From: Acidobacteriota bacterium
GTDB taxonomy: Bacteria; Acidobacteriota; UBA6911; RPQK01; G965218465
Length of the DNA stretch: 64,000 nucleotides
Assembly: GCA_965218465.1 (NCBI GenBank)
Contig: OZ244623.1
Span: forward strand, 2,959,549 to 3,023,548
Direction of reading: 5' to 3'
Position 1 is the first letter of the stretch. Each line of letters opens with the position of its first letter. Positions 5,906 to 23,735 of the stretch are shown in pieces. A program made the translations under genes and the position numbers. Below the pieces are notes generated by a model. It did no database searches, was not told the origin of the DNA, and saw only the letters and a program-made list of their open reading frames with translations.

Positions 5906-7423
5906 ATGGGAAAACCTACTGGTTTCAGGGAATTCGATCGCAAAACCGTCGGTTACCGTGACCCTCTCCAGAGACTGAAAGACTTCGCCGAAATCCTGGC
6001 GCCGACCGATGAAGACCTGCTCCGCACACAGGGTGCGCGTTGCATGGACTGCGGCGTTCCTTTTTGCCAGTCGCACTGCGGATGTCCCCTGGATAATCTG
6101 ATTCCGGAATGGAACGACTTGGTCTATGAGGGTCGGTGGAAAGAGGCCTTGCACCGATTGCACCAAACCAACAATTTCCCCGAATTCACCGGCCGAACTT
6201 GCCCCGCGCCCTGCGAAAGCGCCTGTGTGTTGGGCATTACCGATCCACCAGTCACCATCAAGAACATCGAGAACGCAATTGTTGACCGTGGTTTCGCGGA
6301 AGGCTGGATTCAACCTGATCCTCCCCAACGGCGCACAGGGAAAAGTGTCGCTATTGTCGGCAGTGGACCTTGCGGTCTGGCGGCAGCAGCCCAGTTGAAC
6401 CAGGCTGGACACTGGGTCACCGTCTACGAAAGGGCTGATCGAGTCGGTGGCCTGCTCATGTATGGAATCCCCAACATGAAGCTGGGCAAGGATGTAGTGC
6501 AACGTCGAGTCGACCTGCTGCGCGCGGAAGGCGTGCAATTTGTTACCGGTATGGAGATCGGACTTTCGCGCTTCCCACCGCCGGCCACTGCGAAAAGATC
6601 CCGGGATGTCGAAACAGGAAAGCACCCGGCGCGATTGCTGGAACAGCATGAAGCCTTATTACTTGCCACCGGAGCAACCCGACCATTCGATCCGATCGAG
6701 AATTGCCCAGGACGCCACCTCAAAGGGATCCATCTTGCCATGGACTTCCTGACTCAAACCACCCGGAGTCTACTGGACTCCAAGCTGCGCGCCGGTAGCT
6801 ATTTGTCGGCAAGCAATCGAAAGGTGATCGTGATCGGTGGGGGCGACACGGGAGCCGACTGCATCGGCACTTGCCTGCGTCATGGCTGCTCCGGCATCGT
6901 CAATTTCGAGTTGATGCCAAAGCCTCCGGTGAAACGAAGCAGTAATAATCCGTGGCCTGAGTGGCCGCGTATCTATCGGGTCGAATACTCCCACCAAGAA
7001 GCCCGCCACCGGTTCGGAGAAGATCCCCGGTCTTTTTCCCTTTTGGCCAAGCGCTTCGAGGCCGACGACCAAGGATGGGTGCGAGGTGTGACCACTACAG
7101 AGGTGGATTGGTCCTGTCCCTCTTCAGTAGCGCCTTTCAGCGAGATTGAGGGGAGTGAACGGTTCTGGCCGGCCGATCTGGTCCTTCTTGCAGCCGGCTT
7201 TCTGGGGCCGGAACTTGATTTGACCAGGGGTCTGGGGCTGGAAACGCAGCGTCCTCGTTCCAACTGGGAGACATTTAAGGCTACCGTCCCAGAGTATTCC
7301 ACCAATGTCGAGGGGGTCTTTGCCGCGGGCGATTGCCGCCGCGGGCAATCGCTGGTGGTTTGGGCTATCCAGGAGGGCCGAGGAGCAGCCCGCGCCATCG
7401 ACAAATTTCTCTGCGACCGGTAA
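5906..7423 (+). CDS. gltD: Glutamate synthase small subunit (NADPH-dependent, FAD/[4Fe-4S])
   Basis: [13 protein letters not shown]... Cys clusters ([13 protein letters not shown]...CPAPCESAC), [14 protein letters not shown] dinucleotide fold, directly downstream of gltB. ATG 5906 with gggaag RBS. Confidence 0.93.
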
Positions 7424-7983
7424 ACCGGCTCTCGGCCCCACTTTGGCAACGGTCATAACAAGCGTCCTGACCCAAGGAAGACCGTAGTCGACATCAATGG
7501 GCTTTGAGTAACGCTCCCCAAAAGCCTCAGTAAGAACAACAACCTCGATCTCAGAGGTTTGCTGTGTTCATGCTGCCAATACGCCCTGATAAACAATTTC
7601 AAACTCTTTTCTTGATTCAACAGGATAATAATCGATTGTCAAGTTGGAATCTTGGAGGTTCAAAGATGATGAAATCATTTACTGAATGAGGTTTCCAGGG
7701 TTGGAATTTCTTGACAGTCAAGATAATTTTATTGTAGAGCTTGGAACACTGTTAGAAAGTCAAACACGACTTGTCTCTGAGGGGGAACCGACATTGCCGA
7801 AACTACGCCTGGAACCTAAGATCAAAGCCCCAATTACGGAAACGGAGTATGGTCAATACAAGGATCTGCTTCAAAAAGCGAAAGCGAACGCAGGCGATCA
7901 TCATGTTCTTGTTGATCTGGAGGAAGGTGAAAACTCCACCTATGTGCGCAAGGCGATCAATTTTGTTGCCGGGAAAGAAGGTA
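7169..7983. repeat. Direct repeat copy 1 (~815 bp, ~96-97% identical to 17734..18549): gltD 3' end + intergenic promoter region + 5' end of wHTH-protein gene
   Basis: By-eye alignment: homology begins at ccggccgatctggtcc (7169 / 17734) and ends at gggaaagaaggta (7983 / 18549). Scattered substitutions and one 1-nt indel, so not an assembly duplicate. Confidence 0.8.
7600..7796 (+). promoter_or_regulatory. AT-rich promoter-like region with TTGACA -35-like hexamer (7711-7716) and strong SD (gaggggga) before a TTG start; duplicated at ~18166..18357
   Basis: ttgacagtcaagataattttattgtagagc; gagggggaaccgacaTTG. Low GC relative to surroundings. The -10 element is not clean. Confidence 0.25.
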
Positions 7984-8078
7984 AGGGGACGGTCATGGGA
8001 ACAGGGGGAGCAGTTTGGAGCGAGGATCGGTTCGAGGGGGTCCAATTCCGGTTTGTCGGCCAAACAAGAGCTGCTTGA
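7797..8078 (+). CDS. Truncated/chimeric paralog of the wHTH protein at 18358..18822 (first 62 aa shared, then unrelated tail); probably a non-functional remnant
   Basis: MPKLRLEPKIKAPITETEYGQYKDLLQKAKANAGDHHV.VDLEEGENSTYVRKAINFVAGKEG is identical to copy 2 up to the repeat boundary at 7983, then diverges. TTG start with SD. Confidence 0.3.
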   Translation, partial: PKLRLEPKIKAPITETEYGQYKDLLQKAKANAGDHHVLVDLEEGENSTYVRKAINFVAGKEGKGTVMGTGGAVWSEDRFEGVQFRFVGQTRAA

Positions 8079-8167
8079 TGTGTCGATTCCGAGCGCCATG
8101 CCCCCTGAGTAGCGCTCTTTGATGATTTATCGAATGGCTGGGACGAATTCAGCCAGCGAGGTAGAGT

Positions 8168-8530
8168 ATGACCAAAGCTGACAAGGACCGTTATCTTGCC
8201 GCCGGCGGCACTCTTGCTACCGTAATCAACGCCTTGGGACTTGCGTTCGGGCTCTTTTACATCGATAGGAATCCCCGGCTCGCCGTGTGGATCGTTGTTG
8301 CCAGTATCGTTATTTACGCTGTTTTGAGGCTCGCCTTGGGCTATTGTGACTTCAAATGGCAGCCCTCCGGATCTGCGGATCAGAGCGATGGCGGTGGCCG
8401 TCTCTTAAAAGGGAACGCTGAGGTCAACTTCCCGGACAAGCTCGTTTATGAGGCAGACCTTTCAGGAACTCGACTGGAGATCGATCTGAGGCGGAAGCAT
8501 AACACCGACTTCATTCCGTCGAGCAATTGA
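8168..8530 (+). CDS. Small membrane protein (2 predicted TM helices), unknown function; first gene of island operon
   Basis: MTKADKDRYLAAGGTLATVINALGLAFGLFYIDRNPRLAVWIVVASIVIYAVLRLALGY... Two hydrophobic helices. Tightly followed by the next ORF (23-nt gap). Confidence 0.5.
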   Translation: MTKADKDRYLAAGGTLATVINALGLAFGLFYIDRNPRLAVWIVVASIVIYAVLRLALGYCDFKWQPSGSADQSDGGGRLLKGNAEVNFPDKLVYEADLSGTRLEIDLRRKHNTDFIPSSN

Positions 8531-8552
8531 TAGTCCGCCAGCCAAGAAAGCG

Positions 8553-10220
8553 TTGATGGAAAGCCTGAACCACGACCGCGACTTCGCCAATCTTCTGCTG
8601 ATCGTTCTGAAGGTTCTGCTGGTCATCTTCATCGGGTTGCAGAGTCTGCTCAATCAACTCGGATTGAGTTCCGATGGCATCACCGGTGTCGTCAACGCGA
8701 CGCCCTCCTCGCAGACGAGCCGCGACGGTGCCTTTCAAGTATCGTTTCATACACTCTTCTACTCCCCGGGAGCCGCATACACGGTCATCGACCTCGACAG
8801 CTACGTCACGGTCTGGCGATGTCTCGAGCAAGGTGCTGCTGATGAGTCCTTCTGTCCGATAACCGATGAGGGCTTGCAGCAACTCGAGAGTCTGGGAAAG
8901 GATGACCTCCTGCCCGACTGGCTTCAGGCCCAATGGAGCCAACTCGACGTTACACGAAAGCTGTCCAGGCCTCAACCGAGGGCGCCGGGTTCCGGTCCAA
9001 GAGCCGGGGAGCGATCGGATTCGCTGCACAATGAGACCTTCGATCTGAATGCGATACCGGGAACGTACCGGGTCATTTACCGCGTCACCTTCGAGGCGCC
9101 GCCCGAGAGTCCTAACCCTGACCGCTACTACGCGCACTGGAAGACGTCTGCCCCCGCTACCGAGTCAGGCGAGCAGTCGGATGGAGACACTTGGGAACAC
9201 CCAACGGGGTTTGAGATCTTCTACGACAGCAAGGATCCGGGGGAGTGGCAACTCCCTCCATTGGAAATCATTCAGGGGCGTTCGGCGCGGATGTCCGCGC
9301 AGCTTGATGGCTTTCGACTCGAGGCAGGAGGGGCTCGCGTCAACGATGGGAAGGCTCGAATCGGGCTTTCGAAGAGAGGCCGGGCCAACTGGGCCTTCGT
9401 CTCGGACTTCAGAAACATCACTTTGGGAAGAGACATTCAACACGACGTACTCATCACATCCAAGATCACTGAGATCGGGGCCAATTTTTTCAAGGTGGAA
9501 GATGATCCCAATCCGATCTTGATCGGGACCGCCGACACTGCGGACAATAGGGAAGTTTATGCAGAGTTCCTGAGATTCGACGATGAGAGCGGAACCTTCA
9601 TCGAGGAAGAATTTCGGGAGATGAACGTTGGCGATGCGGTCTACTATGAATTGAGGCGGGGTTCGTCGCAGCGCGTGGCGCGATTAGTGCGCTTCGGTCA
9701 GAAGGCTGTCCCGGCCACCTTGCCAATCGTCGTCCGCCGAAACCTGCCACCCCGGGGCATCTATAATCCGGCGCCTGGGATTGCGGCGTTCCACTTCCCG
9801 GACGATGCCTATAACCACCCGCTCACCGAGGGTGGAGCGTTGGTCCATTACTTCAATCTCAATTTCCGTATCATCGATCCCGACGGCGCCAATCCTTCAG
9901 GATCCCCCAGTATCCATATTCCAAGAAGCGGATTCGAGAAGGTCGGGACTTGGCCGGAGCACTTCAGTCTCGAAGAGTATAAGAATGACACCCTACTCAC
10001 ATTTACTCCAGATCGTCTCTACGAAGGCGCAGATCAAGAGCAGCGTCTATTAGAGCTTCAACTCAAGGTCTCGGACGAGTGGAACAGGTCGTCGCTGGCT
10101 ACGACCATGGTACTGAGAATCCGGTACCGCACATTGGACACCCTCTACGACGCCATTCGACAGATTCAGGACTTGGAGCTAAAGGTTCTGAGTGGTACCG
10201 GATCGGGAGGCTTGCAGTGA
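8553..10220 (+). CDS. Membrane-anchored (N-terminal TM) 555-aa protein with large extracytoplasmic domain; no recognisable family
   Basis: N-terminal LLLIVLKVLLVIFIGLQSLL anchor. Long ORF with coding-like composition. Stop overlaps the next start (GTGATG at 10218-10222). Confidence 0.5.
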   Translation: MMESLNHDRDFANLLLIVLKVLLVIFIGLQSLLNQLGLSSDGITGVVNATPSSQTSRDGAFQVSFHTLFYSPGAAYTVIDLDSYVTVWRCLEQGAADESFCPITDEGLQQLESLGKDDLLPDWLQAQWSQLDVTRKLSRPQPRAPGSGPRAGERSDSLHNETFDLNAIPGTYRVIYRVTFEAPPESPNPDRYYAHWKTSAPATESGEQSDGDTWEHPTGFEIFYDSKDPGEWQLPPLEIIQGRSARMSAQLDGFRLEAGGARVNDGKARIGLSKRGRANWAFVSDFRNITLGRDIQHDVLITSKITEIGANFFKVEDDPNPILIGTADTADNREVYAEFLRFDDESGTFIEEEFREMNVGDAVYYELRRGSSQRVARLVRFGQKAVPATLPIVVRRNLPPRGIYNPAPGIAAFHFPDDAYNHPLTEGGALVHYFNLNFRIIDPDGANPSGSPSIHIPRSGFEKVGTWPEHFSLEEYKNDTLLTFTPDRLYEGADQEQRLLELQLKVSDEWNRSSLATTMVLRIRYRTLDTLYDAIRQIQDLELKVLSGTGSGGLQ

Positions 10221-11248
10221 TGTCAAGAGCGGTGCTGTGGAGTAAAACTCAAGTCGTGTTGTTGATTGCGATGGTTTTCTTCTCGGTCTTTGCCTCGCCC
10301 TGTCTCGGACAAGAGAGTTGCCCCCCGATCGGAAACAGATCCAGGGTGGTCTCTGACCTCAGTTTCGTCGAGACGATGGCCGAGGGAGAGTTCCTCAGGC
10401 TCGTAGGCAGACGGCTGGTCCGCGATAATATGGCGGATTGTGGAGTCAACCCGAGAGATCTGGACAGTTTCATCCTGCTGGTTTCTCCGCCACTCCAGGG
10501 TGCTGAGCGTGGGAACAACAGCTCTTTTCTCCGCGATATCGAGTTGCAACTCTACTTGGTCAGATCTCGTGAAGAGAAGCGGCCCGATGGCACCAGCGGA
10601 ATCGCCACTCAAGAGATAGCTCTTCCTCAGGCTCCCACGGCATTGACAGAAATATTGGCGGGGTCAGAGCTGGTGGAGGCTACGCTCAACAGGATTGAGT
10701 CGCTTACCATGGTCTTCATTCCTCGCATCTTCGTCGGAGAGCCCATCCGGCGGCTGAGCTCTCCCCAGATCGGAAACGGTCCTGGGACGCCCACTCCAGG
10801 CGACACCGAAGAGCCCACGATCTATGTTTCGCCCGTTGTCTTGGTCCCCACGCGAGCGCTCCGGAGCCGCACTGAGAATCCGCCGGTGTTGCTCAGTACT
10901 TGGATGACCAACCTGGAACGGCTCGGAATCAAGTACCTCAAAGCGATGTTGGACGACTTCGAGAAATCGTCTGGACAGAAGCTCTTGACGCGTCGGACTC
11001 TGATGTTGTTCAGAGGTTGGCAGCCTGTGGAGGGACCCATCGGTTTGGGAAGGAGCGAACAGCCCGGGCTACCCTACACCTGGACCGAGTTAGTCAATCT
11101 TGAGCAGGCCGTTGGAGCAAGAGAGACCGGCCAGTACCTTCAGCGTTTCCAAGACTTCTGGAAAGCGGTCGAGAAAAACATCGATACTTTCCGTCAAGAG
11201 GACCAGGACAAACTCAAGGCTATTTTTGATCAAGAGAAGTCAAACTAG
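10220..11248 (+). CDS. Secreted hypothetical protein (signal peptide MSRAVLWSKTQVVLLIAMVFFSVFASPCLG)
   Basis: ATG overlaps the upstream stop. Classic Sec signal peptide. The track ORF 10079.. is extended upstream by alternate-start logic. Confidence 0.5.
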   Translation: MSRAVLWSKTQVVLLIAMVFFSVFASPCLGQESCPPIGNRSRVVSDLSFVETMAEGEFLRLVGRRLVRDNMADCGVNPRDLDSFILLVSPPLQGAERGNNSSFLRDIELQLYLVRSREEKRPDGTSGIATQEIALPQAPTALTEILAGSELVEATLNRIESLTMVFIPRIFVGEPIRRLSSPQIGNGPGTPTPGDTEEPTIYVSPVVLVPTRALRSRTENPPVLLSTWMTNLERLGIKYLKAMLDDFEKSSGQKLLTRRTLMLFRGWQPVEGPIGLGRSEQPGLPYTWTELVNLEQAVGARETGQYLQRFQDFWKAVEKNIDTFRQEDQDKLKAIFDQEKSN

Positions 11249-11269
11249 ATCGGGATCGCTCTGTCCGTG

Positions 11270-12859
11270 ATGCTAACCTCAATCTATCAGCACAAGACTC
11301 ATAACCGTAGGGAGGTGGACGGTTCACGTTCCAGAAGAATCGTCGGGTTGCTCTTGTTGCTGTTAACGGTGCTGACGGGAGAGGGGCTGTCACAGTGCAC
11401 ACGAGACCGGATTGCCGAAGCGGCCCGCAAAGTCGGTGCGCTCGAATCATCGACTCTCGACATTTTCGGGGCAGGCCGCTTCACCGTCGCCGACGAGGGT
11501 AGCGCTCGCGCCTTCCTGGTGGAGGCCAACCATCTGGCGGCGCGTCTCAGAGAGGTCCTCGGAATCGTCACCCCTCCCTCGAGGGACGAGGTGGTTCCCA
11601 ATGAAGCGGCCGGGCGAGGGTTCAATGCAAGTGAAAAACAAGGACTACTCTGCCTGCAAGACACACTGCAGAAATTTTATGAAAAGGTCGGGGAGGGCCT
11701 GTTGAGGGCGGAAGATCATCTCGCCCGGGCATCGATCCTATTGCATCACAGCGTCATTTTTCCGGAAACCGACTTTCCGCGAACTCCCGGCGCCTTGCTC
11801 GGTCGTGCACTGCGCGACTATGAATCCGTCTACACGGCCGCGCTCCAGGTTTTAGAAGATAGAGGTGGAAACTATGCAACCTATGGCTTGGCCGTCAAGC
11901 TCGGAATCGACCTCAACCGCCCGGCGCCTGCTTTCGAGCATCTCGACGAATTCGTCAAGCTTGCGGTTGCGACCTCGATTCAGTGGCCCGATCACGGCTC
12001 TCAGATCGGAACTGTCCTGAAACAGGTTTTGTGCGCCGGCTACCACCTCTATCCCGGCCGGCGCGATACCATCGAACGCGCCGACCAGATCTTGATTCGC
12101 CTGGATCGGGGCAATCTAGCCGTCTCCGCCCCGGTTTTCCGATTCGTCGGGCGCGTCAACAAGATTCTGCGGCTCTCCGAGATATCGTTCGAGAAAGTCG
12201 GTTCGCCTTGCGAAAGCGGGTCTCCGGGTCGGCTTCTCCGGTTTGGAGAACCGATGGTCGAACTTACCGCCCCGGAGGTGCTGCTGGAAAGGCTGGCAGA
12301 AGCCGAGGAGGAGCTGAGCTCTTCTCTCAGTCTGGTGTCGGAGAGGGGCCTGGGATACTCTTCTTCTTCCCTCAAACGCTGGATGCCGTTCGAGTCATAT
12401 AGCGAGCTTCTTTACCGGATTGCTGAGACGCTCGCACCATCCTATAGCGCGGATAGCGAGACCTGGGAACTCAGGAGTGCCCTCAGGACGCGATCTTGCA
12501 TGGCGCTGATTCGCGGGCTCCAATCGATCGGGATCACAGTCGAGTCTGAGTCGAGGGAACGTCTTCGACGAACCCTCCTTGAGCGAATCGACGAACATGT
12601 CGGCGATCTCTTTGCCCGACTATGGTTCAAGAAAGCAGCCGAGTTCGCGGCTCACTTTTCCCAGCAGAACTATCGAATGTTGCTCCAGGAAAGCCAGTGG
12701 AAACGGCTCAACACTCTTCTAGCTCGGGCCTATTTCATGGACTGTCAGAATGCGAACGCGCTCAGGCGTCTCCGTTCCTCGGACACCACCATAACCAAGC
12801 TGCGAGAGTTCAAAACAACCTATCATGAGAACGGCCTCGACGTCAGCTGCCCGGACTGA
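11270..12859 (+). CDS. Secreted, predominantly alpha-helical hypothetical protein (~529 aa)
   Basis: Hydrophobic N-terminus (RIVGLLLLLLTVLTGEG). 19-nt gap after the previous gene. ATG at 11270; the track's 11267 is a GTG. Confidence 0.45.
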   Translation: MLTSIYQHKTHNRREVDGSRSRRIVGLLLLLLTVLTGEGLSQCTRDRIAEAARKVGALESSTLDIFGAGRFTVADEGSARAFLVEANHLAARLREVLGIVTPPSRDEVVPNEAAGRGFNASEKQGLLCLQDTLQKFYEKVGEGLLRAEDHLARASILLHHSVIFPETDFPRTPGALLGRALRDYESVYTAALQVLEDRGGNYATYGLAVKLGIDLNRPAPAFEHLDEFVKLAVATSIQWPDHGSQIGTVLKQVLCAGYHLYPGRRDTIERADQILIRLDRGNLAVSAPVFRFVGRVNKILRLSEISFEKVGSPCESGSPGRLLRFGEPMVELTAPEVLLERLAEAEEELSSSLSLVSERGLGYSSSSLKRWMPFESYSELLYRIAETLAPSYSADSETWELRSALRTRSCMALIRGLQSIGITVESESRERLRRTLLERIDEHVGDLFARLWFKKAAEFAAHFSQQNYRMLLQESQWKRLNTLLARAYFMDCQNANALRRLRSSDTTITKLREFKTTYHENGLDVSCPD

Positions 12860-12910
12860 AATGGATCATGCAGCTCGAAGAACTCACGATGTGACCCTGG
12901 GAGCGCAACT

Positions 12911-15900
12911 ATGACTCGGAAATTTTTCCGGATTTGGCTGGCAGTCATAGTCTCTGTGGGCGTGATCTCCAACGTGAGCTCTTCGCCCGTCCTTCCAGCG
13001 ACCCAACCGCCAGCAACCGTCGCCCAACAAGTCTCGAGCCGGAGCCAAGTTCAGGTATTGGACCGACTCGTTCGGGAGTATGCGAGCCTACCCGTTTTCG
13101 ACTTGACCCTTGCTCATCGCCACCAGAGCTTCGAACTTCAGTACGACCGGGCCTACTCGATCGCCCGGGAGATGCAGCAACTGGCAAACACAGCCGAGCA
13201 GTCTTTTCTGAGAAGCTACCCCACGACTCTGAACCGGCAGGAAATGGAAGCGAACGTCAGAATCCATGTTCTGATGGCCATCGTCGGCGCTCGGCTCGGC
13301 TATGAGGAGTTTTTCGAAAGACACCTGGAAGTCGCTTTGGATAGAATTCGGCGCCACTATGGCTACCGCGGTCGTGACGCACGGCTGGAGTTGAAAAAAA
13401 TCGCTGATGGGGGGTCAAGTATCGAAAACTCCTCCCTTGCGGACACGTTCTGTCGCCAGGCGAGTACGATTCTCTCGCAGCCCACCGTGGGGCATCCCCG
13501 CAATCCGCCTTCCTGCCTTTCTCCGGACCCGGAGCCGAGTTTCTTCGAGCGCTTGCTGAGAAATGCTGGCGATCCCAAAGAGCTGGTCTTCGACCGCAGC
13601 GCGAACATAACCAATCTCTCCGGGTTCGCCATCCGGGTAGCCAATTACGCCACGGCCTCGCCACAGTCGATTCTTTTCGCCAACGCGCTGACGAAGGTGC
13701 TTGCCGACCCTCTGGTCACGAACTGGTTCATCCGTTTCTACCGGGATCAGGCTGTCGACGTTCCGACGGTAGACAGGCGCATCCGTTCGGATGTTCCGTC
13801 GTCATCGGATCGGCAACAACCTCCTCCGCTCTATGCACAGCAAGGTCGGGTCAATATTCAATCGAGCGACTACTTCGTCGTCGACCGGGGTGATCGGCAG
13901 AAAATCGAGTGGCTAGGCCATGTCCGGAACCTTTTTGAGCTGAAGCAGCAGATCTCTATCAAAGTTCGGATACCGGTTGGTGAATATCTGGTTTATCCGA
14001 CTAGACAGGCCTTTCCAACAGAGTTCTCACTCAAGCCGAACCTGATCGTCACGACCAGTTCCTTCGAGCCCATGCCGGGGTTTGACCTCTATTTGAGTCC
14101 CTCGGAATCGAGTGTCAGCGTCGTCCCGAAACAGAAACCTGGTTCAATCAAGGCTTCTCTGTTCAAACCGGACTTCAAGCTCCTTCGTTTCGATGTTGGA
14201 ATTGACGACAGTTCAAGGGACATCAGTGGAGGCGTCGAGCTCCGACTATTTCACCGCATCAATCGCTACCTCGCGGTTCAAACTCAATTGGAAGGCGTTT
14301 TTCTCAAACACCACGACAACATCAACCCGCTCAACCCCCGGATTTTCCGCCGCGACTCTATTCCGTTTGAGAATTTCACAAGCCGTGAGGTCCAGTTCGA
14401 TATCGGTCCCGTCATGCGTTTCGACCGTTGGCAACTGGCGGTCATGGAGAGCTTTCGCCTGGTTAATCGCAGTGGCTGGGATTCTTCGGGAGAGATCGGC
14501 CAGTTCTTCTTCAACCTCGGTTATCTGATCCCTGCGCGGGGTCAGGTCGGCCTTTACGCAACACGTGCCAACAAACAAGAGTCGGTCGTGAATCGGGTGC
14601 GCCTCGAAACGACTCTCGTTGAAGAGATCTATCTCAGGGTCACAGATCAGATTGGAGTGAACTTCAATATTCACTTGGGAAAGGGTTTTTCCGTGGAAGG
14701 GGCGTTTGGCCATCTCGACACGATTCGGCGGAAAAATGCCTGGGGTGGGGTCGTGCGCACTTACCTGCCACCGATCTGGAAAAGGGTTCAACTGACGACC
14801 GAGTTCGGCTTCAACGAAGGCTTTGTTGCTCAGAGTAACAACTGGCGGTTCGGCGTAGGCCTTCGTTTTGGAGGATGGGGCCGGGCCGGGGGGCCGGCAC
14901 CTTCGACCGTGCTCGGCCGCTCGGCCGGGCCTGAACCGGTATTCGTACCCCGTGTGCGCTATGAGACTCTGACGCGAGTCGTGCGAGATGGGAATCGCAG
15001 GCCAGTGGCCGATGCCGGGCCCGATCAATTGGACTTGGTTCCGTCCGAACGGTTGCCGGGCGGAGATCTCGGGAGGAAGGTCGTTATCGACGGAAGCAGT
15101 TCCTTTGATCCGGATGGCGACGAGATCAGCTACGAGTGGACTAAATTGGACGACTGCCCTGATTCCATCACGTTCGAGGATTTACAGGGAACCGGATCGG
15201 TGGGACCTGCGTCGGCCGCCATCTCCTTCGCGATCAACAATGGTGAGAGCTGTAGTGTCCAGTTGATCGTCGAAGATAGCCTGGGGTTGAAGGGCGATCC
15301 CGACATCGTCCGGGTGTCGGTCCAACGGGGGCCTCTCCCGGTCATCGTCAGTTTCACCGCCCAACCGGCGACGATCCCAATGGGCGCGGAGTCGACGTTG
15401 AGCTGGGAAACCCGCGATGCGGAAACGGTTGAAATCACTAATGTTTCGAACTCGAGTACGCTTCCGGTCAATGGAAGTGTCTCCGTAACGCCCTCGGTCA
15501 CGACCACTTACGTCCTTTCGGCCTGCAACGCGGCGAGAGAGTGTGCGACAGCGCAGACCACCGTGGTCGTCAAGGCAGATTTGCCGGTCATCGTCAGTTT
15601 CACCGCCCAACCGGCGACGATCCCAATGGGCGCGGAGTCGACGTTGAGCTGGGAAACCCGCGATGCGGAAACGGTTGAAATCACTAATGTTTCGAACTCG
15701 AGTACGCTTCCGGTCAATGGAAGTGTCTCCGTAACGCCCTCGGTCACGACCACTTACGTCCTTTCGGCCTGCAACGCGGCGAGAGAGTGTGCGACAGCGC
15801 AGACCACCGTGGTCGTCAAGGCAGATTTGCCGGTCATCGTCAGTTTCACCGCCCAACCGGCGACGATCCCAATGGGCGCGGAGTCGACGTTGAGCTGGGA

Positions 15901-17095
15901 AACCCGCGATGCGGAAACGGTTGAAATCACTAATGTTTCGAACTCGAGTACGCTTCCGGTCAATGGAAGTGTCTCCGTAACGCCCTCGGTCACGACCACT
16001 TACGTCCTTTCGGCCTGCAACGCGGCGAGAGAGTGTGCGACAGCGCAGACCACCGTGGTCGTCAAGGCAGATTTGCCGGTCATCGTCAGTTTCACCGCCC
16101 AACCGGCGACGATCCCAATGGGCGCGGAGTCGACGTTGAGCTGGGAAACCCGCGATGCGGAAACGGTTGAAATCACTAATGTTTCGAACTCGAGTACGCT
16201 TCCGGTCAATGGAAGTGTCTCCGTAACGCCCTCGGTCACGACCACTTACGTCCTTTCGGCCTGCAACGCGGCGAGAGAGTGTGCGACAGCGCAGACCACC
16301 GTGGTCGTCAAGGCAGATTTGCCGGTCATCGTCAGTTTCACCGCCCAACCGGCGACGATCCGAGTGGGCGCGGAGTCGACGTTGAGCTGGGAGGTGCAAA
16401 ACGCGACCCGAGTGGACATCACCAACAGCCAAGACTTTGTACCATCCTTGCCCAGCACCATCCCGCTAATCTCCAGCGGAGTTGTGATGCCTTCGGCGAC
16501 CACGACCTACACGCTGACCGCGTCCAATGATGACGGAGCGACCGCATCGGCCCAGTTGACCGTGCTGGTTCTACCCGTTCTTCCGCAGATTCTGAGTTTC
16601 GCTGCGACTCCAACACAGATCCTGACCGGGGAGTGCACGACTTTGAGTTGGGAGACAGAGGGAGCAGATTCGGTCTTCCTTACGAATTTGACCTCCGGTG
16701 ATACTCCAATCGCCGTCAACCCGGACGACAGCGTGATCGTTTGTCCCACTCAAACGACGGCTTTCACTCTCACAGCGACGAATTCCGCAGATGAGGTCTC
16801 GACGGCGCAGGTGACGGTCTATGTCCAAGAAGACTTGCCTGTGATCGTCAGCTTTACCGCCAAACCTACTGACATCTTCCAAGGTAAGAGTAGTGAGTTG
16901 TGCTGGGAGGTGGAAAATGTAGAAAGAGTGTCCATTACCAATATCCCCAACGGCGACAACCTGCCCGCCATGGGATGCAAGACCGTCCAGCCAACGGGAA
17001 CGACGACCTATACGCTGACCGCAGTGGGTAATGGGGGCGTCGTCCAAGCCACGGCGACGGTGGTGGTGAGATCCACACCCTCGTTCCCATTCTAG
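12911..17095 (+). CDS. Giant (1394 aa) secreted repeat protein: signal peptide, predicted outer-membrane beta-barrel-like segment, PKD-like module, 7 Ig-like ~82-aa modules; candidate inverse-autotransporter-like adhesin
   Basis: Signal peptide MTRKFFRIWLAVIVSVGVISNVSS. Amphipathic alternating-hydrophobic stretch ~14100-14900 ending ...NNWRFGVGLRFGGW (aromatic-terminated, typical of a last beta-strand). VIDGSSSFDPDGDEISYEW PKD-like motif. Seven modules of pattern P.I.SF.A.P..I..G...TL.WE......V.I.N.......G......P..TTTY.L.A.N......A...V.V. Confidence 0.65.
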   Translation: MTRKFFRIWLAVIVSVGVISNVSSSPVLPATQPPATVAQQVSSRSQVQVLDRLVREYASLPVFDLTLAHRHQSFELQYDRAYSIAREMQQLANTAEQSFLRSYPTTLNRQEMEANVRIHVLMAIVGARLGYEEFFERHLEVALDRIRRHYGYRGRDARLELKKIADGGSSIENSSLADTFCRQASTILSQPTVGHPRNPPSCLSPDPEPSFFERLLRNAGDPKELVFDRSANITNLSGFAIRVANYATASPQSILFANALTKVLADPLVTNWFIRFYRDQAVDVPTVDRRIRSDVPSSSDRQQPPPLYAQQGRVNIQSSDYFVVDRGDRQKIEWLGHVRNLFELKQQISIKVRIPVGEYLVYPTRQAFPTEFSLKPNLIVTTSSFEPMPGFDLYLSPSESSVSVVPKQKPGSIKASLFKPDFKLLRFDVGIDDSSRDISGGVELRLFHRINRYLAVQTQLEGVFLKHHDNINPLNPRIFRRDSIPFENFTSREVQFDIGPVMRFDRWQLAVMESFRLVNRSGWDSSGEIGQFFFNLGYLIPARGQVGLYATRANKQESVVNRVRLETTLVEEIYLRVTDQIGVNFNIHLGKGFSVEGAFGHLDTIRRKNAWGGVVRTYLPPIWKRVQLTTEFGFNEGFVAQSNNWRFGVGLRFGGWGRAGGPAPSTVLGRSAGPEPVFVPRVRYETLTRVVRDGNRRPVADAGPDQLDLVPSERLPGGDLGRKVVIDGSSSFDPDGDEISYEWTKLDDCPDSITFEDLQGTGSVGPASAAISFAINNGESCSVQLIVEDSLGLKGDPDIVRVSVQRGPLPVIVSFTAQPATIPMGAESTLSWETRDAETVEITNVSNSSTLPVNGSVSVTPSVTTTYVLSACNAARECATAQTTVVVKADLPVIVSFTAQPATIPMGAESTLSWETRDAETVEITNVSNSSTLPVNGSVSVTPSVTTTYVLSACNAARECATAQTTVVVKADLPVIVSFTAQPATIPMGAESTLSWETRDAETVEITNVSNSSTLPVNGSVSVTPSVTTTYVLSACNAARECATAQTTVVVKADLPVIVSFTAQPATIPMGAESTLSWETRDAETVEITNVSNSSTLPVNGSVSVTPSVTTTYVLSACNAARECATAQTTVVVKADLPVIVSFTAQPATIRVGAESTLSWEVQNATRVDITNSQDFVPSLPSTIPLISSGVVMPSATTTYTLTASNDDGATASAQLTVLVLPVLPQILSFAATPTQILTGECTTLSWETEGADSVFLTNLTSGDTPIAVNPDDSVIVCPTQTTAFTLTATNSADEVSTAQVTVYVQEDLPVIVSFTAKPTDIFQGKSSELCWEVENVERVSITNIPNGDNLPAMGCKTVQPTGTTTYTLTAVGNGGVVQATATVVVRSTPSFPF
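15338..16358. repeat. Perfect tandem DNA repeat, 246-bp unit x4 (15338, 15584, 15830, 16076) plus identical first 37 nt of a 5th unit; inside the giant-protein gene
   Basis: Unit start ccggtcatcgtcagtttcacc recurs at an exact 246-nt period. Three minus-strand ORFs (15508..15753, 15754..15999, 16000..16245) have identical translations, confirming 100% identity. Diverged copies continue to ~17090. Confidence 0.9.
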
Positions 17096-17296
17096 TCTAG
17101 ATCGCATCCGGGAAGTCGGGTTTTTTGAGATTGATAGAGTGAGGGAAGGTGCGAGAAGCTGCAAAAAGGCAGAGCGGATGGGGCAGCTGGCAAGAGTTTC
17201 AACTCCGGTGAGAGCCGATACTGGTTTGTGAAGAGACTGGTCCCTGACAGTAGTTGCTGGTGCTGAATCCATCGGCGCTTACAGCAGCAGGCGTGC

Positions 17297-17733
17297 CAGG
17301 ACCAGCAAGTTGAAGCTGGTGACCGACAGGTGCACATACTGCTGAAAGTGCTGCCAGCCTTTCCAGGGGCAGCGTTTGACTGCGAAGACTCGCTTGAGCA
17401 TCGAGATGCAGCCTTCGATGCCGGCCCGGAAACGTCGCAGTTGACGGTAGACCCAGCTGGAGCGCACCATCTGGTGGACCTTCAGGCGGCCTTTCTTGGC
17501 GAAGGCGACTCTTGAATGCCTTGCTCCTTGGCCCACTGCAGATTGGCGCGGGTGGCAAAGCCGCCGTCGAAGCTGGCCTGTCGAGGCCAGCCGCGGCCGT
17601 AGAGGTCAAAACTGGCGCTGGAGCAAGGGCTGGAGCTGAGACTGATCAGCCGGGTTGCCTGCCACGACCTCACAGTCCAGAATCAGTCTGGAGGCTCCGC
17701 AGGTTAAAAACAGCTTGTGGCCAAAGACTGTTT
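17297..17733 (-). mobile_element. IS remnant (DDE_Tnp_1-type transposase, IS5/IS1182/IS4-like), 5'-truncated and frameshifted
   Basis: Minus-strand frames give ...[35 protein letters not shown] (G.K.H..VD....P....T.ANVHD motif), SFDGGFATRANLQWAKEQGI (DxGYxSxxNxxxLxxxGI motif) and C-terminal GIEGCISMLKRVFAVKRCPWKGWQ...NLLVLARLL, in three different frames. Abuts the gltD-fragment repeat at 17733/17734. Confidence 0.6.
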
Positions 17734-17992
17734 TCCGGCCGATCTGGTCCTTCTTGCAGCCGGCTTTCTGGGGCCGGAACTTGATTTGACCAGGGGTCTG
17801 GGGCTGGAAACGCAGCGTCCTCGTTCCAACTGGGAGACATTTAGGGCTACCGTCCCAGAGTATTCCACCAATGTCGAGGGGGTCTTTGCCGCGGGCGATT
17901 GCCGCCGCGGGCAATCGCTGGTGGTTTGGGCTATCCAGGAGGGCCGAGGAGCAGCCCGCGCCATCGACAAATTTCTCTGCGACCGGTAAACC
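17734..17992 (+). pseudogene. gltD 3'-terminal fragment (last ~86 codons) within direct repeat copy 2
   Basis: [83 protein letters not shown] is near-identical to the gltD C-terminus. No 5' part present. Confidence 0.8.
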
Positions 17993-18549
17993 GGCTCTCG
18001 GCCCCACTTTGGCAACGGTCATAAAAAGCGTCCTGACCCAAGGAAGACCGTAGTCGACATCAATGGGCTTTGAGTAACGCTCCCCAAAAGCCTCAGTAAG
18101 AACAACAGCATCGATCTCAGAGGTTTGCTGTGTTCATGCTGCCAATACGCCCTGATAAACAATTTCAAACTCTTTTCTTGATTCAACAGGATAATAATCG
18201 ATTGTCAACTTGGAATCTTGGAGGTTCAACGATGATGAGATCATTTACTGAATGAGGTTTCCAGGTTGGAATTTCTTGACAGTCAAGATAATTTTATTGT
18301 AGAGCTTGGAACACTGTTAAAAAGTCAATCACGACTGTCTCTGAGGAGGAACCGACATTGCCGAAACTACGCCTGGAACCTAAGATCAAAGCCCCAATTA
18401 CGGAAACGGAGTATGGTCAATACAAGGATCTGCTTCAAAAAGCGAAAGCGAACGCAGGTGATCATCATGTTTTTGTTGATCTGGAGGAAGGTGAAAACTC
18501 TACCTATGTGCGGAAGGCGATCAATTTTGTTGCCGGGAAAGAAGGTATC
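17734..18549. repeat. Direct repeat copy 2 (see 7169..7983)
   Basis: See copy 1. Confidence 0.8.
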
Positions 18550-18822
18550 TCTCTCAGATTGACGTTGCGCAGGGGGCAGAATACCTTTTCCCTGCGCTTC
18601 GGCAAATCCGATAGGTCACCGGTACGGCGATCGGCTCGGGAGGCTCGCGACCTGATCATTGACGCTCTCAAGAAGGCCGGCACCCAACTGCAACGCTCCC
18701 AGATTCTCAAGCATACTGGACTGAGTGCCGGAACTTGGAACATCCGAATTCGCGAACTGCTACGGGACGGCTTGGTGAAGAAAGAAGGTAAGGGCCGGGA
18801 TACCAGCTACACGGTAGATTGA
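18358..18822 (+). CDS. Winged-helix DNA-binding protein (154 aa), unknown regulon
   Basis: C-terminus SAREARDLIIDALKKAGTQLQRSQILKHTGLSAGTWNIRIRELLRDGLVKKEGKGRDTSYTV resembles a wHTH (MarR/PadR-like recognition helix + wing). TTG start with gaggagg SD. Confidence 0.5.
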   Translation: MPKLRLEPKIKAPITETEYGQYKDLLQKAKANAGDHHVFVDLEEGENSTYVRKAINFVAGKEGISLRLTLRRGQNTFSLRFGKSDRSPVRRSAREARDLIIDALKKAGTQLQRSQILKHTGLSAGTWNIRIRELLRDGLVKKEGKGRDTSYTVD

Positions 18823-18831
18823 AGTCAGGCT

Positions 18832-18848
18832 CAATGCTGCAGGCATTG
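18832..18848 (+). terminator. Hairpin CAATGC-tgcag-GCATTG 10 nt after the wHTH gene stop
   Basis: 6-bp perfect inverted repeat followed by a GC-rich stretch. No U-run. Confidence 0.2.
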
Positions 18849-19258
18849 AGGGGCGCCGGGGAGCCCCGCCCGGCACCAATCGATCCATTGCACTTGAAAG
18901 AAGTGTTGGTTGTCTCTTCCCCTTCTTCGTCAACAAGCGGGCTCAACTCGCCCCGATTGGCTCTTGGACTGGACTAGCCAAACTCTTGGACCTCGCCGGT
19001 GAACCCATTTCATCGGCAACCCCGTAAGGCTGAAGGGCTCTTGCAATTAAGCTGCCGAGTGCATGCCGCAGATCCGACCGGATCCCGGAGGTTCCTGACA
19101 CAGGTGACCGCTCATCCTTGGGCTGTCTCTTGGGGCCTGTTGTCAATTGGGGACGAGGCTTGCCGCTTCCCACCAGCCTTTTCCGCCCTAAGGAATGTAG
19201 GAGACAAAGACAGTTTTGTAGACCCGGCATTCCACCCGCTCGGCAGAAAACACTGAAA

Positions 19259-19738
19259 ATGAAAACTCGAGCCGCAGTCCATTCCGACCTGGAAGCAATT
19301 GCCCGCCTGCAAGCCGTCACAAGAGTGACGACGCCTTACTACGGCCGCTCGACCCACCAAGACCTTGAATATGAACGACTGTACCCGCGTGTGGCGGGCT
19401 ACTTGTCCGGTACTTATCACCCCAGCTTTGCACTCGATGATCGGTCGATGTTTGTTGCCCTGGATCAAAGCCAAATTATCGGTTTCAGCGCCGGTCACCG
19501 CTCAACCCGAATGGGCTGTCTGGCTGAGCTGCAATGGACATTTGTTCTTCCTGAGCGGCAACGGCAGGGAATCGGTGCACCGTTGTTGTCTCTGTTGCAG
19601 GCTTGGTTTAGATCGCACCAAGCAACGCGTGTCATCGTCGATGCTGCTCCCAATAATCCGTAGCGGGCGTTTTACATCAAGCACGGAGCGATACCACTTG
19701 ACCGGTATTGGCTCTACTGGCCCGACATCAGCCAGTGT
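19259..19738 (+). pseudogene. GNAT-family N-acetyltransferase interrupted by an in-frame TAG (19661-19663) inside the conserved C-terminal motif; reading frame continues to TAA at 19738
   Basis: MKTRAAVHSDLEAIARL...RQRQGIGAPLLSLLQAWFRSH (motif A Q/RxxGxG), then ...DAAPNNP*RAFYIKHGAIPLDRYWLYW. The stop falls just before the GNAT FY.K.GF-like segment. Confidence 0.4.
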
Positions 19739-19944
19739 CGAATCTAAATCTTGTAGTTGGGTATTGAGTAAGACCGGCCTGGGAAGACTGACCAACGGCG
19801 GCTCGGTGCATCCTCTCCCGAGATAATTGTGAGGACTGGGCTGCGTTTTTTGGAAAAGGGAAACGTTCAGCGTCGAAGATTTTGCGCTGATGGTCTGTTA
19901 CTATTTTTTCCATTAACATCTTCAATCTTGTGTGATCTGAATTC

Positions 19945-22900
19945 ATGCCTATGAAAAGCAATCGTCTCTTTTTCTGGATTGGGTTGGTGCTCCTCTCACT
20001 GGTTTCTCTGTTGGGAGCCTATCGTTATTTTGGCGAGGCCTTCCCGCTGATCAACCTGGATCTTCAAATGGATAGGGCCACTGCGCTGGAGCGGGCCCGC
20101 CAAGTGGCCGATCGTCTCCAATGGGGTCCGACGGAATTTGAGCAGGCGGCTTCTTTCGGTTCCGATTCGCAGGTCCAGAATTATGTCGAACTGGAGGGCG
20201 GAGGTAAGGCAGCTTTTGCGCGGTTGCTGGAGAGTAACCTCTTCTCTGCCTACACCTGGCGAGTTCGTCACTATCGTGAGCAGGAGACCACTGAGAGTCT
20301 GATTCGCTTTACGCCGGCTGGTGAGCTGTGGGGATTTCGCGAGCAACTTCCCGAAGATCAACCTGGCGCGACGCTGACGGAGGAAGAGGCTCGAAACCTG
20401 GCCGAAACCCGTGCCACCGGGGAGCTAGGTATCGAGCTGGAGCCCTACCAACTGGTGGAGCATGCCCAGGAAGTGCAACCCGGAGGCCGCACCGATCACA
20501 GGCTGGTTTACGAGCACCGTCGCCGGGATATTGGAGAAGCTCGTTATCGCCTGCGTTTGATGGTTAGTGGAGACCGCTTCACGGAACTAGAGCGCTTTAT
20601 TAAGGTTCCTGAGGCGTTCACCCGACGCTACCAGGAGATGCGCTCTTCCAATAACACGATTGGAGTGGTTGGAGGCCTGGCGATGGTGCTGGTCTATATC
20701 CTGGGTGGATGCGTCATCGGGCTCTTTTTCCTCCTGCGGCAGGGTTGGGTGTTGTGGAAGAAGGCGCTTTTCTGGGGTCTTTTCGTCGCCTTTCTGCAGG
20801 GTCTGGTGGTTCTCAACCAGCTCCCACTGGCTTGGATGAATTATGACACGGCTTTATCTCGCCAGGGCTTTCTAGCTAATCAAGTGACGGCGGCGCTGCT
20901 TCAGTTCGTGGTGCTGGGAGTTCTGTTGACGCTTTCTTTCATGGCCGCCGAGACGCTCTCACGGAAAGCTTTCCCCCACCATATTCAGTTCTGGCGGTTG
21001 GGATCTGCAGGCGTCGCCAATACGACGCCCGTCTTGGGGTCTACCATTGCAGGATACCTGTTGGTACCGGTCTTCTTCGGGTATGAAGTGGCCCTTTATT
21101 TCTTCTCCAACAATGTTTTGGGTTGGTGGTCCCCTTCCAATGCCCTGTTGCAGCCGGACGTCTTGGCCAACTATCTTCCCTGGCTTTCCTCGATAGCCAT
21201 TTCTTTTCAGGCCGGTTTTTGGGAGGAATGTCTGTTTCGAGCAGTTCCCTTGGCAGGTGCGGCGTTGTTGGGACGACATTTCGGTAAACCCAAACTCTGG
21301 ATCGCCGTCGCCTTGGTCGTTCAGGCACTGATTTTCGGTGCGGGACACGCCCCTTATCCGACCCAGCCTGCCTATGCGCGAGTGGTGGAGTTGATCATCC
21401 CCTCGCTGTTCTTTGGAGCCATCTACTTGAGGTTTGGTCTGTTACCGGCCATCGTGCTTCACTACGCCTTTGACGTGGTTTGGTTTGCGATCCCCCTGTT
21501 TGTTTCCACCGCCGCCGGGGTCTGGATCGATCAGGTCCTGGTCGTGATTCTCGCCTTGGCGCCGCTGGCGGCTATTGGAGTGGTCCGATGGCGCGCGGGC
21601 AAATGGAGCGGGTTGTCACCCGACAAGCTGAATGGATCTTGGGAGCCAGCTCCGCCTTCAGAACCCGAAATCGAGCCGGAGGCGCCGCCCGAACGGAGCG
21701 CCCCCACTCTGCTCCCGGCCTTACGCTCCGGGTTGCTGGTGAGTGGAGTTGTCGGCTTGGTGGTTTGGGCCTTATTGGGACGATTCCAAACCGACGTCCC
21801 TGAGTTGAAGGTTGATCGGAAGCAGGCACTGGAGATTGCCCGGGGCACGCTGGAGGATCGAGGCGTTCAAATTCCCGCAACTTGGCAGGAGATGGCCTCG
21901 ATTGAAGAAGGATCGACAGAGGTGGAACGCTTTATCTGGCAAACGGCCGGCAAGGAAACCTATCGGGAACTGGCCGGTTCTTATCTCCGTGGCGCCCGCT
22001 GGAAAATCCGCTATGTAACTTTCGAAGGAAATGTGGAGGATCGTGCTGAGGAGTACCAGATTTTTGTCGGCGATTCGCAATCGGTTCCCCGTCTTCTCCA
22101 TAGGCTTCCCGAGGCCAAGGAGGGCGTTTCCTTGGCCGAAGAGGAGGCGCGTTCGGCTGCTCTGACGGCGATTTCAGCGCGTTTTGGACTCAACCCTGAA
22201 GATCTGGAGGAGATTTCCGCCAAACCGTCCAAGCGCCCCGCCCGCCAGGACTGGACCTTTACCTTCGCCGATCAGACCCGGCAACTACCTCGGGGCGAGG
22301 CACGGGTAGCGGCTGTGATAGCCGGAGATGAAGCGGCCCACGTCTACCGCTTGATTCACGTGCCCGAGGAATGGGAGAGGGAGGAACGCAGCCGGCGCAA
22401 TTTGGCCAGAATCATCGGGATTCTGTGTGGAGTGCTGATCGCTCTGGGGGCAGTCGCCGGAGGGGTTGTGGCCGTGGTCAGTTGGACCCGAGGGAAGTTC
22501 TCGCCTCGGACATTGCTGTGGTTGGCTCCGGCTCTGTTTCTGCTCAATCTGGCGGGTTTATTGAATGGATGGCCGAGTCTGAAGTCGAATTTGAGCACTG
22601 CTCAGCCTCTTAGCCACCAGTTACTGGCACTGATAGCGGGCGGAGTGATCGGGATGCTCCTGCTCTCTCTCCTGTTGGCGTTGTTGTTCGGCTGGGTCAA
22701 GACTGCCCTCCACTGGGGTGGTGGGCGCACAACCAGCAGAATCGCCTTGGGAATTGCTCTGGGAGTGGTGGCCAAGTCGCTCCAGGTGCTGGCCGCCGCC
22801 TTTAGTCCCGCCACGGTTCCCGCTTGGCCCGAGTTCGGTGCTCTGGACGATTTTCTGCCCGTGTTGAGTCCGTTGGTCGCTTCGGTTACCCAATACCTCA

Positions 22901-23313: not shown

Positions 23314-23518
23314 GCCTTTCTCCGGGCTCCATTGAGAGCCGACCAACCTCCAAGTGGAAGCCGAGCCATCAGTCGTCCCCTGGAGGGAGGCGAACCTGCG
23401 GAAGAGCGCCAGAGGCTTGATTGGGAGTGACCCTTGTCCCCGCAGATGACTTGTCGGGGGGAAGCGACGCAAGCGGGCGATGACTCGAATCGAGTCGCAC
23501 AATAACTGCCAGTCCAAG

Positions 23519-23683
23519 TGTGCCAGGACCAGCAAGTTGAAGTTGGTGACTGACAGAGGCACATACTGCCGAAAGTGCTGCCAGCCTTTCCAGCGACAGC
23601 GTTTGACTGCGAAGACTCGCTCGAGCATCGAGATGCAGTCTTCGGTGTCGGCCCGAAAACGGCATAGCTGTCGGTTACCCCCA
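23519..23683 (-). mobile_element. Second IS remnant: ~165 bp of the same transposase 3' end as at 17297..17460
   Basis: gccaggaccagcaagttgaag(c/t)tggtgac(c/t)gacag...cgtttgactgcgaagactcgct(t/c)gagcatcgagatgcag aligns to 17297-17460. Encodes MLERVFAVKRCRWKGWQHFRQYVPLSVTNFNLLVLAHL. Confidence 0.55.
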
Positions 23684-23735
23684 CTGCCTCGACATCATCG
23701 CGACCGGAACAGGTGACACTGAGCATCACGATGAA

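Follow-up and report, generated by a model that had tools for sequence, protein, structure and literature searches.

How a member of the Acidobacteriota might display a large repeat protein on its surface is the question raised by five adjacent genes, here designated A-E, in a 64,000-nucleotide stretch from Acidobacteriota bacterium (GenBank assembly GCA_965218465.1, contig OZ244623.1, positions 2,959,549 to 3,023,548 of the forward strand). This 64-kb stretch is referred to as the window, and the five genes occupy its positions 8168-17095, all on the plus strand (Table 1). We lean, with moderate confidence, toward a reading in which E is an inverse-autotransporter-like surface protein, the products of A-D may form an envelope-spanning anchoring/assembly platform on the N-terminal domain of E (hereafter EN), and the five genes travel together as a mobile cassette. 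The cassette looks like an undescribed surface-display system. In the searchable literature, which is incomplete, we found no description of the E family and no report linking inverse autotransporters or OmpA-PKD barrels to Acidobacteria.

Predicted barrel, linker, and passenger of protein E

The original prediction proposed an outer-membrane beta-barrel with an aromatic-terminated last strand in the giant protein E, and structure prediction is in agreement. With a 75-sequence alignment, AlphaFold2 (AF2) modeled E residues 395-810 at a predicted local distance difference test (pLDDT) of 90.3 and a predicted template modeling score (pTM) of 0.81, and residues 422-656 were folded as a barrel. 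In Foldseek searches, the barrel region matched outer-membrane barrels exclusively, with invasin at rank 3 and intimin at rank 18, and the remaining matches were to the part of the model that is PKD/immunoglobulin-like (Ig-like). The structural-match figures were 17.2 for NanC, 17.0 for KdgM, 16.6 for VhGalP, 15.5 for EstA, 13.9 for NalP, and 13.6 for FapF, and that of the intimin barrel was 16.5 over 197 aligned residues; Hbp and AIDA-I were also among the matches, and PKD domains matched the C-terminal part of the model (figure of ~10). The DSSP string fits 12 transmembrane strands, running from 422-432 through 645-654. Judging from the model, residues 422-656 most likely form an outer-membrane beta-barrel, with 12 as the most likely number of strands.

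The model also suggests how the barrel may be oriented. On one side, the strands are joined by turns of 2-4 aa and on the other by loops of 5, 19, 6, 13, 6, and 10 aa, of which loop L4 holds an extra short strand. Both ends of the barrel are located on the short-turn side and, by the usual rule for outer-membrane proteins, would therefore face the periplasm. Because the last strand ends on the periplasmic side, the 27-residue linker that follows must cross the pore if the PKD and Ig-like modules are outside. The linker and the strand after it are strongly conserved directly after the central domain (family consensus PVPVxVPRVRYExLTRxVRxGNxxPxADAGPDQ); pLDDT is <50 at linker residues 664-668, and the post-linker strand is modeled at ~97. 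Mean-field direct coupling analysis (DCA) of 150 sequences (effective number, Neff, 106) is noisy and gives weak support only. In this noisy analysis, the best coupling of residues 687-697 is to L4 residues 562-574, on the long-loop side, T567-R696 has a charge-swap pattern (R/D, E/R, and Q/R), and the top pair joins lumen-facing N535 to linker residue V677.

The predicted PKD-like motif and seven Ig-like modules of E both proved to be real, and four of the modules are identical. Repeat copy number differs between cassette copies, and complete E genes encode 994-1394 aa. An exposed stalk would be in keeping with both the variable number of repeats and the presence of a Cys pair in every module. 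In relatives of E, the Ig-like region matches Big_9 and I-set. For E itself (15335-17092), no Pfam model matched these modules significantly, and a strong match was found to a PHROG "virion structural protein" repeat (phrog_2155, 6.6e-80), such that the same type of Ig-like module also decorates phage particles. Also, E was called as two ORFs in the copies at L007:8844-12972 (1065+327 aa) and L101:17006-20697 (286+843 aa), which are either frameshifts/pseudogenes or long-read errors within the repeats.

Based on these features, we propose that after Sec export residues 422-656 would insert in the outer membrane as a ~12-stranded barrel with both ends periplasmic. The conserved Pro-rich linker (657-683) would run back through the barrel pore, and the strand at 684-692 would dock on the extracellular loop L4. 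The PKD domain and the seven Ig-like modules would be displayed outside as a stalk, the length of which may vary by recombination between near-identical repeats. The likely role of such a stalk would be adhesion or aggregation, and a role in plasmid transfer is possible. Linker threading, surface exposure, contact between EN and A-D, and adhesive function are the parts of this proposal that we infer.

The same barrel could instead anchor E in the outer membrane with the linker unthreaded and the PKD/Ig repeats in the periplasm, in which case E and A-D would be an envelope-spanning tether or scaffold like OmpA, Pal, or Lpp and not an adhesin. An even-stranded barrel does leave both termini of E in the periplasm, the linker has a low-confidence stretch and its threading is not seen directly, and all partners of E are predicted to be inner-membrane or periplasmic proteins. 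We nevertheless consider this arrangement unlikely, given that the post-linker strand covaries with the extracellular long-loop side (L4 residues 562-574) and that the conserved Pro-rich linker has a length suited to crossing the pore. Furthermore, variation in repeat number and PKD/Ig stalks are features typically seen in exposed proteins, and a periplasm already occupied by OmpA or EN would have little room for ~590 aa of Ig modules.

Partner genes A-D and the alternation of N-terminal domains

At least 16 independent loci share the gene order A-B-C-D-E, at 23-40% identity. In addition to the four distant loci listed in Table 1, this order is found in the GTDB loci L021-L032. Identities between the window and L015 are 29% for A, 26% for B, 23% for C, 26% for D, and 40% for E. 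Pairwise BLASTP joined most of the counterparts across L015, L017, L018/L019, and L105, and the family profiles recovered all five proteins in L015, L017, and L018/L019. Homologs of A are in the same position in L015, L017, and L018 (E-values of 1e-5 to 1e-7), as are those of C (C vs. C15: 23% identity, E-value of 5e-7). The surroundings of the distant copies are varied: that in L018:1072-4663 is preceded by genes for a GGDEF protein and a secreted protein of 633 aa, and that in L105:14165-17327 has genes for pentapeptide-repeat and collagen-like proteins downstream and for a 1199-aa CLIPPER/Big_1 protein upstream.

The targeting features that had been predicted, namely, two transmembrane helices in A, an N-terminal anchor in B, Sec signals in C and D, and a signal peptide in E, recur as predictions in distant homologs. 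The two hydrophobic helices of A are conserved in homologs of 91-211 aa. Its length and two-helix layout persist in loci with an identity of only ~30%, despite a near-neutral dN/dS among ~93%-identical copies. B has its transmembrane helix at residues ~10-28, with K19, Q29, and Q34 invariant, and the invariant motifs NxPPRxIY and IVDPDG. C has a hydrophobic N-terminus and conserved early Cys residues. D has a conserved "QC" after the signal peptide, with the early Cys conserved, and is the most conserved protein of the set (93% amino acid identity; dN/dS of 0.3).

On sequence evidence, A-E are confirmed as real genes rather than chance open reading frames (ORFs), since dN/dS is <1 and the five-gene order is held at 23-40% protein identity. 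Compared with the ~93%-identical plasmid copies, dN/dS is 0.3 for B, D, and E, 0.5 for C, and 0.8 (0.75-0.88) for A. All five co-directional ORFs are present, and the gaps given earlier (23, -1, 19, and 52 nt) agree within 1-3 nt with ours, which vary with the choice of start codon (A-B, ~22-25; B-C, -1; C-D, 18-21; and D-E, 51 nt). The start of C overlaps the stop of B by 1 nt, the public gene call for B is 554 aa (start at 8556), and Shine-Dalgarno-like sequences (GAGG/GGGAGG/GGGAG) are located upstream of A, C, and E.

Public collections contain the exact sequences of all five proteins, and wherever a source names them, the name is "hypothetical protein." This naming, together with a mobile context that has toxin-antitoxin genes, would fit five arbitrary hypothetical ORFs or an anti-phage defense island with no joint function. 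We regard this explanation as extremely improbable, as PADLOC gave no match, dN/dS is <1, and the synteny across those at least 16 independent loci largely refutes it.

The absence of a known family for the first four genes, as stated in the original prediction, was upheld. A-D had no significant match in Pfam, NCBIfam, or PADLOC, and A had no family match in PHROGs as well. For E, the Pfam/NCBIfam/PADLOC searches gave only a sub-threshold PKD-like match. With PHROGs, only the Ig repeats of E were matched among A-E. Searches of Protein Data Bank (PDB) sequences with B, C, D, and E(1-720) gave no match, and none of 13 D homologs or 10 B homologs matched Pfam. No relation of B or D to the E family was found by hhalign, nor of D to EN by BLASTP. 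A profile search with B found three proteins only.

E has many more relatives, and these come in two forms. A word-indexed search with E(1-720) found only copies that are 89-100% identical, and 129 cluster representatives were recovered when E(1-700) was searched exhaustively with HMMER. A few of these can be aligned to the full query, at 42-46% identity. In most, the shared part is limited to residues ~483-700, and these are proteins of typically 500-1600 aa with more sequence after the shared region. In Pfam searches of 50 representatives, a K319L-like PKD was found in 47 and an N-terminal OmpA peptidoglycan-binding domain (PF00691) in 22, with no match over the shared central domain and neither PF11924 nor PF03797. 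When one genome per GTDB species was scanned, 115 relatives were detected, of which the best 80 are almost all Acidobacteriota (Bryobacterales, Solibacteraceae, Paludibaculum, and Terriglobia), and cultured carriers of the OmpA-type version are Paludibaculum fermentans T20B24 (L039) and Bryobacterales F-183 (L081). Judged by these searches, the E family is sizeable and undescribed, with a predominance of Acidobacteriota among the genomes fetched.

EN is present only in the E subfamily that carries A-D; its helices to about residue 280 appear only in an AF2 model of E 1-890 with a pLDDT of 29, built from four near-identical sequences. In 66 of the 67 GTDB loci without EN, an OmpA domain and a heptad-like segment that is probably a coiled coil come before the barrel. 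Domains of the OmpA type are periplasmic peptidoglycan binders. Their position before the barrel in these loci would thus place the N-terminus of the barrel in the periplasm, as LysM does in intimin. The OmpA-type gene that was inspected directly (P0052) stands alone.

Profiles of A, B, C, D, and EN were run on all fetched loci. In the GTDB set, the A-D profiles matched only loci in which the E gene has EN, and they had no match in any of the ~68 OmpA-type loci. D is directly 5' of E in 10 of the 11 EN-type GTDB loci, the other being L022, a 3.1-kb contig without upstream sequence, and, where the contig is long enough, A, B, and C are present in most of the 11 as well. By these profiles, A-D track EN and not the barrel or the passenger. 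Because the OmpA-type paralogs do without them, A-D do not appear to be general export factors for the barrel family, and their association with the N-terminal domain argues against a generic export role and favors a periplasmic/inner-membrane platform. The idea that the four upstream genes encode dedicated envelope accessory factors thus gains from a conserved gene set and strict co-occurrence with EN.

The deep and strict synteny, the co-occurrence of A-D with EN, and the tight or overlapping gene spacing, which suggests co-translation, could also be read as signs of a dedicated export or assembly pathway, i.e., chaperones or a translocation-assisting complex that the E passenger needs, making the set a multi-component secretion system. 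This possibility appears improbable to us. OmpA-type paralogs share the barrel, linker, PKD, and Ig modules but lack A-D, and no ATPase, TonB/ExbB-like, or POTRA-like family was detected in the Pfam/NCBIfam scans of A-E or the Pfam scans of the B and D homologs.

In the platform reading that we prefer, EN would stay in the periplasm and engage D and C, both secreted, as well as B and A, the inner-membrane proteins with one and two transmembrane helices, respectively. Together, A-D and EN would form an envelope-spanning anchoring/assembly platform in place of the OmpA-type peptidoglycan anchor. This is a natural module swap, in which an OmpA domain alternates with EN, a domain without a known family, plus four dedicated envelope proteins, and it suggests an undescribed way to tie an outer-membrane adhesin to the inner membrane. 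We also entertain, tentatively and with considerable doubt, a new multi-component envelope-spanning display machine, spread by plasmids, in which the two periplasmic and two inner-membrane partners, joined to E via EN, would act as chaperones or drivers of passenger export or would link the adhesin to the inner membrane, either mechanically or through signaling. In that case, inverse autotransport would have arisen independently, and possibly convergently, in Acidobacteriota with this barrel.

Several points weigh against the reading that we prefer. The E model resembles intimin no better than it resembles plain 12-stranded porins, and no sequence relation of its barrel to intimin/invasin or to any solved barrel was detected. 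The 12 strands stand against 14 DSSP segments, and the strand count and linker position are deduced from the model rather than seen. The covariation is noisy (Neff ~106), and its top pair, N535-V677, appears to be clade-linked. Direct binding of EN by A-D is something that we infer from co-occurrence, and the stand-alone paralogs indicate that barrel and passenger do not need A-D, so that an export role for A-D is not required. Finally, no promoter was found 5' of A in a consensus scan, and A is near-neutral among the close copies (dN/dS ~0.8).

Mobility of the cassette and its insertion site

The module that contains the five genes (Table 1) is shared with the plasmid-like and insertion sequence (IS)-flanked contigs L001, L002, and L004-L008. 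Close copies were seen in three kinds of context. One, on a 3.3-Mb contig, occupies the same gltBD site and has two Ig repeats less; another is accompanied by IS240 transposases and ParA on a 29-kb contig; and the third is on the 19.8-kb L002, along with RepA_C, ParA, PIN/RHH, and BrnT. The ends of L002 (1-19763; 3x coverage) overlap, with 1-428 matching 17444-17871 and 426-1782 matching 18407-19763. L002 is probably a circular plasmid of about 18 kb, of which the cassette makes up approximately half. Gene B is split into 321 and 240 aa in this contig, which may be an assembly error given the 3x coverage. Furthermore, a variant of D (P0014) was found on 11 contigs, in which the cassette is flanked at one end by genes for PIN, NikA/MobC, and relaxase fragments and at the other by resolvase, toxin-antitoxin, and integrase genes.

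In the window, the 5' neighbors of the cassette are gltB and gltD, and the 3' neighbors are a truncated HTH gene followed by a gene for a 1122-aa Rce1-like protein. The cassette is bounded by two long direct repeats, the left one including the 3' end of gltD (Table 1). An empty site was found in contig L104 (10.6 kb), which comes from a metagenome that also has filled copies; in this contig, gltBD is followed by a single repeat copy and the Rce1-like gene, and 7984-17734 is missing. The direct repeats and the empty site define a presence/absence polymorphism of 10,566 nt within one population, consistent with a cassette that integrates or excises through recombination at the repeat. In the genome of the window, the cassette would thus be gained or lost by recombination across the 815-nt direct repeats.

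These observations show that the cassette, of 9 kb, is an accessory and horizontally mobile unit on small mobilizable plasmids and IS-flanked islands. The earlier description of a composition-atypical island holds for the island, given the direct repeats, the empty site, and the plasmid copies, but not for the composition. GC content is 0.568 compared with 0.565 in host genes, GC3 also matches the host, and the tetranucleotide distance is only mildly raised (0.19-0.20 vs. 0.11-0.16), partly due to the tandem repeats. Its mobility on small plasmids, together with the recovery of an empty site and filled copies from one metagenome sample, indicates an adaptive trait subject to gain and loss among strains.

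The cassette might also serve the plasmid that carries it, with E as an adhesin for aggregation or contact between cells that stabilizes mating pairs, or in surface exclusion, for mobilizable plasmids. It accounts for about half of the ~18-kb RepA_C/ParA plasmid-like contig and adjoins NikA/MobC and relaxase-fragment genes in L004-L007. We consider such a role very unlikely, since divergent copies (L015, L018, and L023-L032) are found in chromosomal-looking contexts without transfer genes, no type IV secretion system genes are adjacent, and tblastn of E(1-700) and B against PLSDB gave no match.

Other features were observed 3' of the cassette. A 172-nt direct repeat (86% identical) is located at 17288-17459 and 23515-23686, i.e., 3' of the cassette and of the Rce1-like gene, respectively. 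This repeat, which may be a small repeated or mobile element, overlaps an ORF of 63 aa that was called on the minus strand. The 1122-aa protein (19945-23313) has only a central Rce1-like CAAX-protease domain, and the strongest AT skew in the window (-0.20) is found at 20001-22000.

Table 1. Features of the cassette and its insertion site in the window, with product lengths in four distant loci.
Feature	Position	Strand	Description
Left direct repeat	7169..7983	+	815 nt; 3' end of gltD + 560 nt
Mobile module	8073..17090	+	Five genes + 95 nt upstream; exactly shared stretch (blastn, ~93% nucleotide identity)
Gene A	8168..8530	+	120 aa; predicted inner-membrane mini-protein, two transmembrane helices
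Gene B	8553/8556..10220	+	555/554 aa; bitopic, N-terminal transmembrane anchor and large predicted periplasmic domain
Gene C	10220..11248	+	342 aa; signal peptide, predicted periplasmic
Gene D	11267/11270..12859	+	530/529 aa; signal peptide, predicted periplasmic
Gene E	12911..17095	+	1394 aa; predicted outer-membrane protein (ORF and homologs)
E residues ~26-421, N-terminal domain EN	12986..14173	+	Predicted periplasmic; no family match
E residues 422-656, transmembrane beta-barrel	14174..14878	+	Most likely 12 strands (AF2); C-terminal end ...WRFGVGLRFGGW
E residues 657-683, Pro-rich linker	14879..14959	+	...GPEPVFVPRVR; family-wide conservation
E residues 684-808, post-linker strand and PKD domain	14960..15334	+	Strand YETLTRVVR; K319L-like PKD
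E residues 809-1394, seven Ig-like modules	15335..17092	+	82-87 aa each, Cys pair in each
Tandem repeat	15338..16392	+	246 nt, 4.3 copies, 99% identical; four identical Ig modules
Terminator-like hairpin and T-run	17106..17131	+	Just 3' of E; consensus scan only, site count not above shuffled sequence
Right direct repeat	17735..18547	+	98% identical
Locus L015 (TARA scaffold)			A-B-C-D-E; 120/475/326/542/1387 aa
Locus L017 (Logan contig)			A-B-C-D-E; 91/490/355/516/1316 aa
Locus L018/L019 (ENA and JGI contigs)			A-B-C-D-E; 211/485/434/474/1161 aa
Locus L105 (Logan contig)			A-B-C-D-E; 130/480/361/533/1338 aa

Comparison with known systems

Among secretion routes, type V is regarded as the simplest. 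A type-Ve-like lineage that is widespread in Acidobacteriota, a major soil/marine phylum, would concern a cell surface that is almost unstudied. The OmpA-type relatives in the cultured strains (L039 and L081) offer an experimental handle on the predicted surface display.

Several candidate systems were considered and rejected. A classical autotransporter (PF03797) is not matched in E or its relatives, and the passenger of E follows the barrel, which occupies residues 422-656 of the 1394. For type IX secretion system cargo, no C-terminal domain family (Por_Secre_tail) was found in E or its relatives, and E has its own barrel. For a TonB-dependent receptor, no Plug, TonB_dep_Rec, ExbB, or ExbD was found in A-E, and the E barrel resembles 12-stranded proteins rather than 22-stranded ones. 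For known defense systems, PADLOC had no match for A-E and the two flanking ORFs. The barrel region thus has no soluble fold in the model, no protein of the set matched a known system, and the gene set is conserved, all in keeping with the original prediction.

The closest architectural counterpart is type Ve, the inverse branch, which is found mainly in Proteobacteria and in some Chlamydiae and Cyanobacteria and is defined by one barrel family; a 2016 survey of inverse autotransporters does not mention Acidobacteriota (PMC4943183). Proteins of this type (intimin, invasin, and YeeJ; PF11924, IAT_beta/invasin_beta) have the same order of signal peptide, periplasmic module, 12-stranded barrel, linker, and Ig passenger, and in intimin/invasin the linker crosses the barrel pore (PMC4943183). 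The model of E likewise places a 12-stranded barrel N-terminal to the passenger, and the type Ve order that had been proposed for E was recovered with its signal peptide, predicted periplasmic module, barrel, linker, and PKD/Ig passenger, the OmpA domain of the paralogs fixing the N-terminus of the barrel in the periplasm. The N-terminal module is analogous to LysM but different: it is the OmpA domain, of a type that binds peptidoglycan as LysM does, in these paralogs and the predicted periplasmic EN in E.

The differences are equally clear. E has no detectable sequence relation to PF11924; this family, suggested earlier as a check, is absent in E (E-value <=1) and in the 50 relatives, and the E family profile matched only PKD and OmpA_C domains among PDB sequences, with no barrel and neither 4E1S nor 4E1T. 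The first passenger domain of E is a K319L-like PKD, not Big_1, and the periplasmic module is OmpA-like or EN, not LysM, which was not found in the Pfam scans of E or its relatives. Also, type Ve systems are single polypeptides, as are the OmpA-type paralogs, whereas the EN-type E genes have D upstream and usually A, B, and C. The same type Ve architecture on a barrel without detectable sequence relation to that family would reflect either very remote homology or a convergent invention of inverse autotransport.

Other barrel proteins were also compared with E. KdgM/NanC porins are stand-alone channels of ~170-210 aa without periplasmic or passenger domains and have 10-11% identity to the E barrel. 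The classical autotransporters of type Va (EstA, NalP, Hbp, and AIDA-I) have a C-terminal barrel and an N-terminal passenger, opposite to E. FapF, the amyloid secretion channel of the fap operon, ends with its barrel, has no passenger, secretes separate substrates, and has no sequence relation to E. OmpA has an N-terminal barrel, a C-terminal peptidoglycan-binding domain, and no passenger, and E itself lacks an OmpA domain. With OmpA/Pal anchors, the likeness would be one of role: the part proposed for EN and A-D may represent the same kind of envelope anchoring, and 66 of the 67 paralogous loci start with PF00691.

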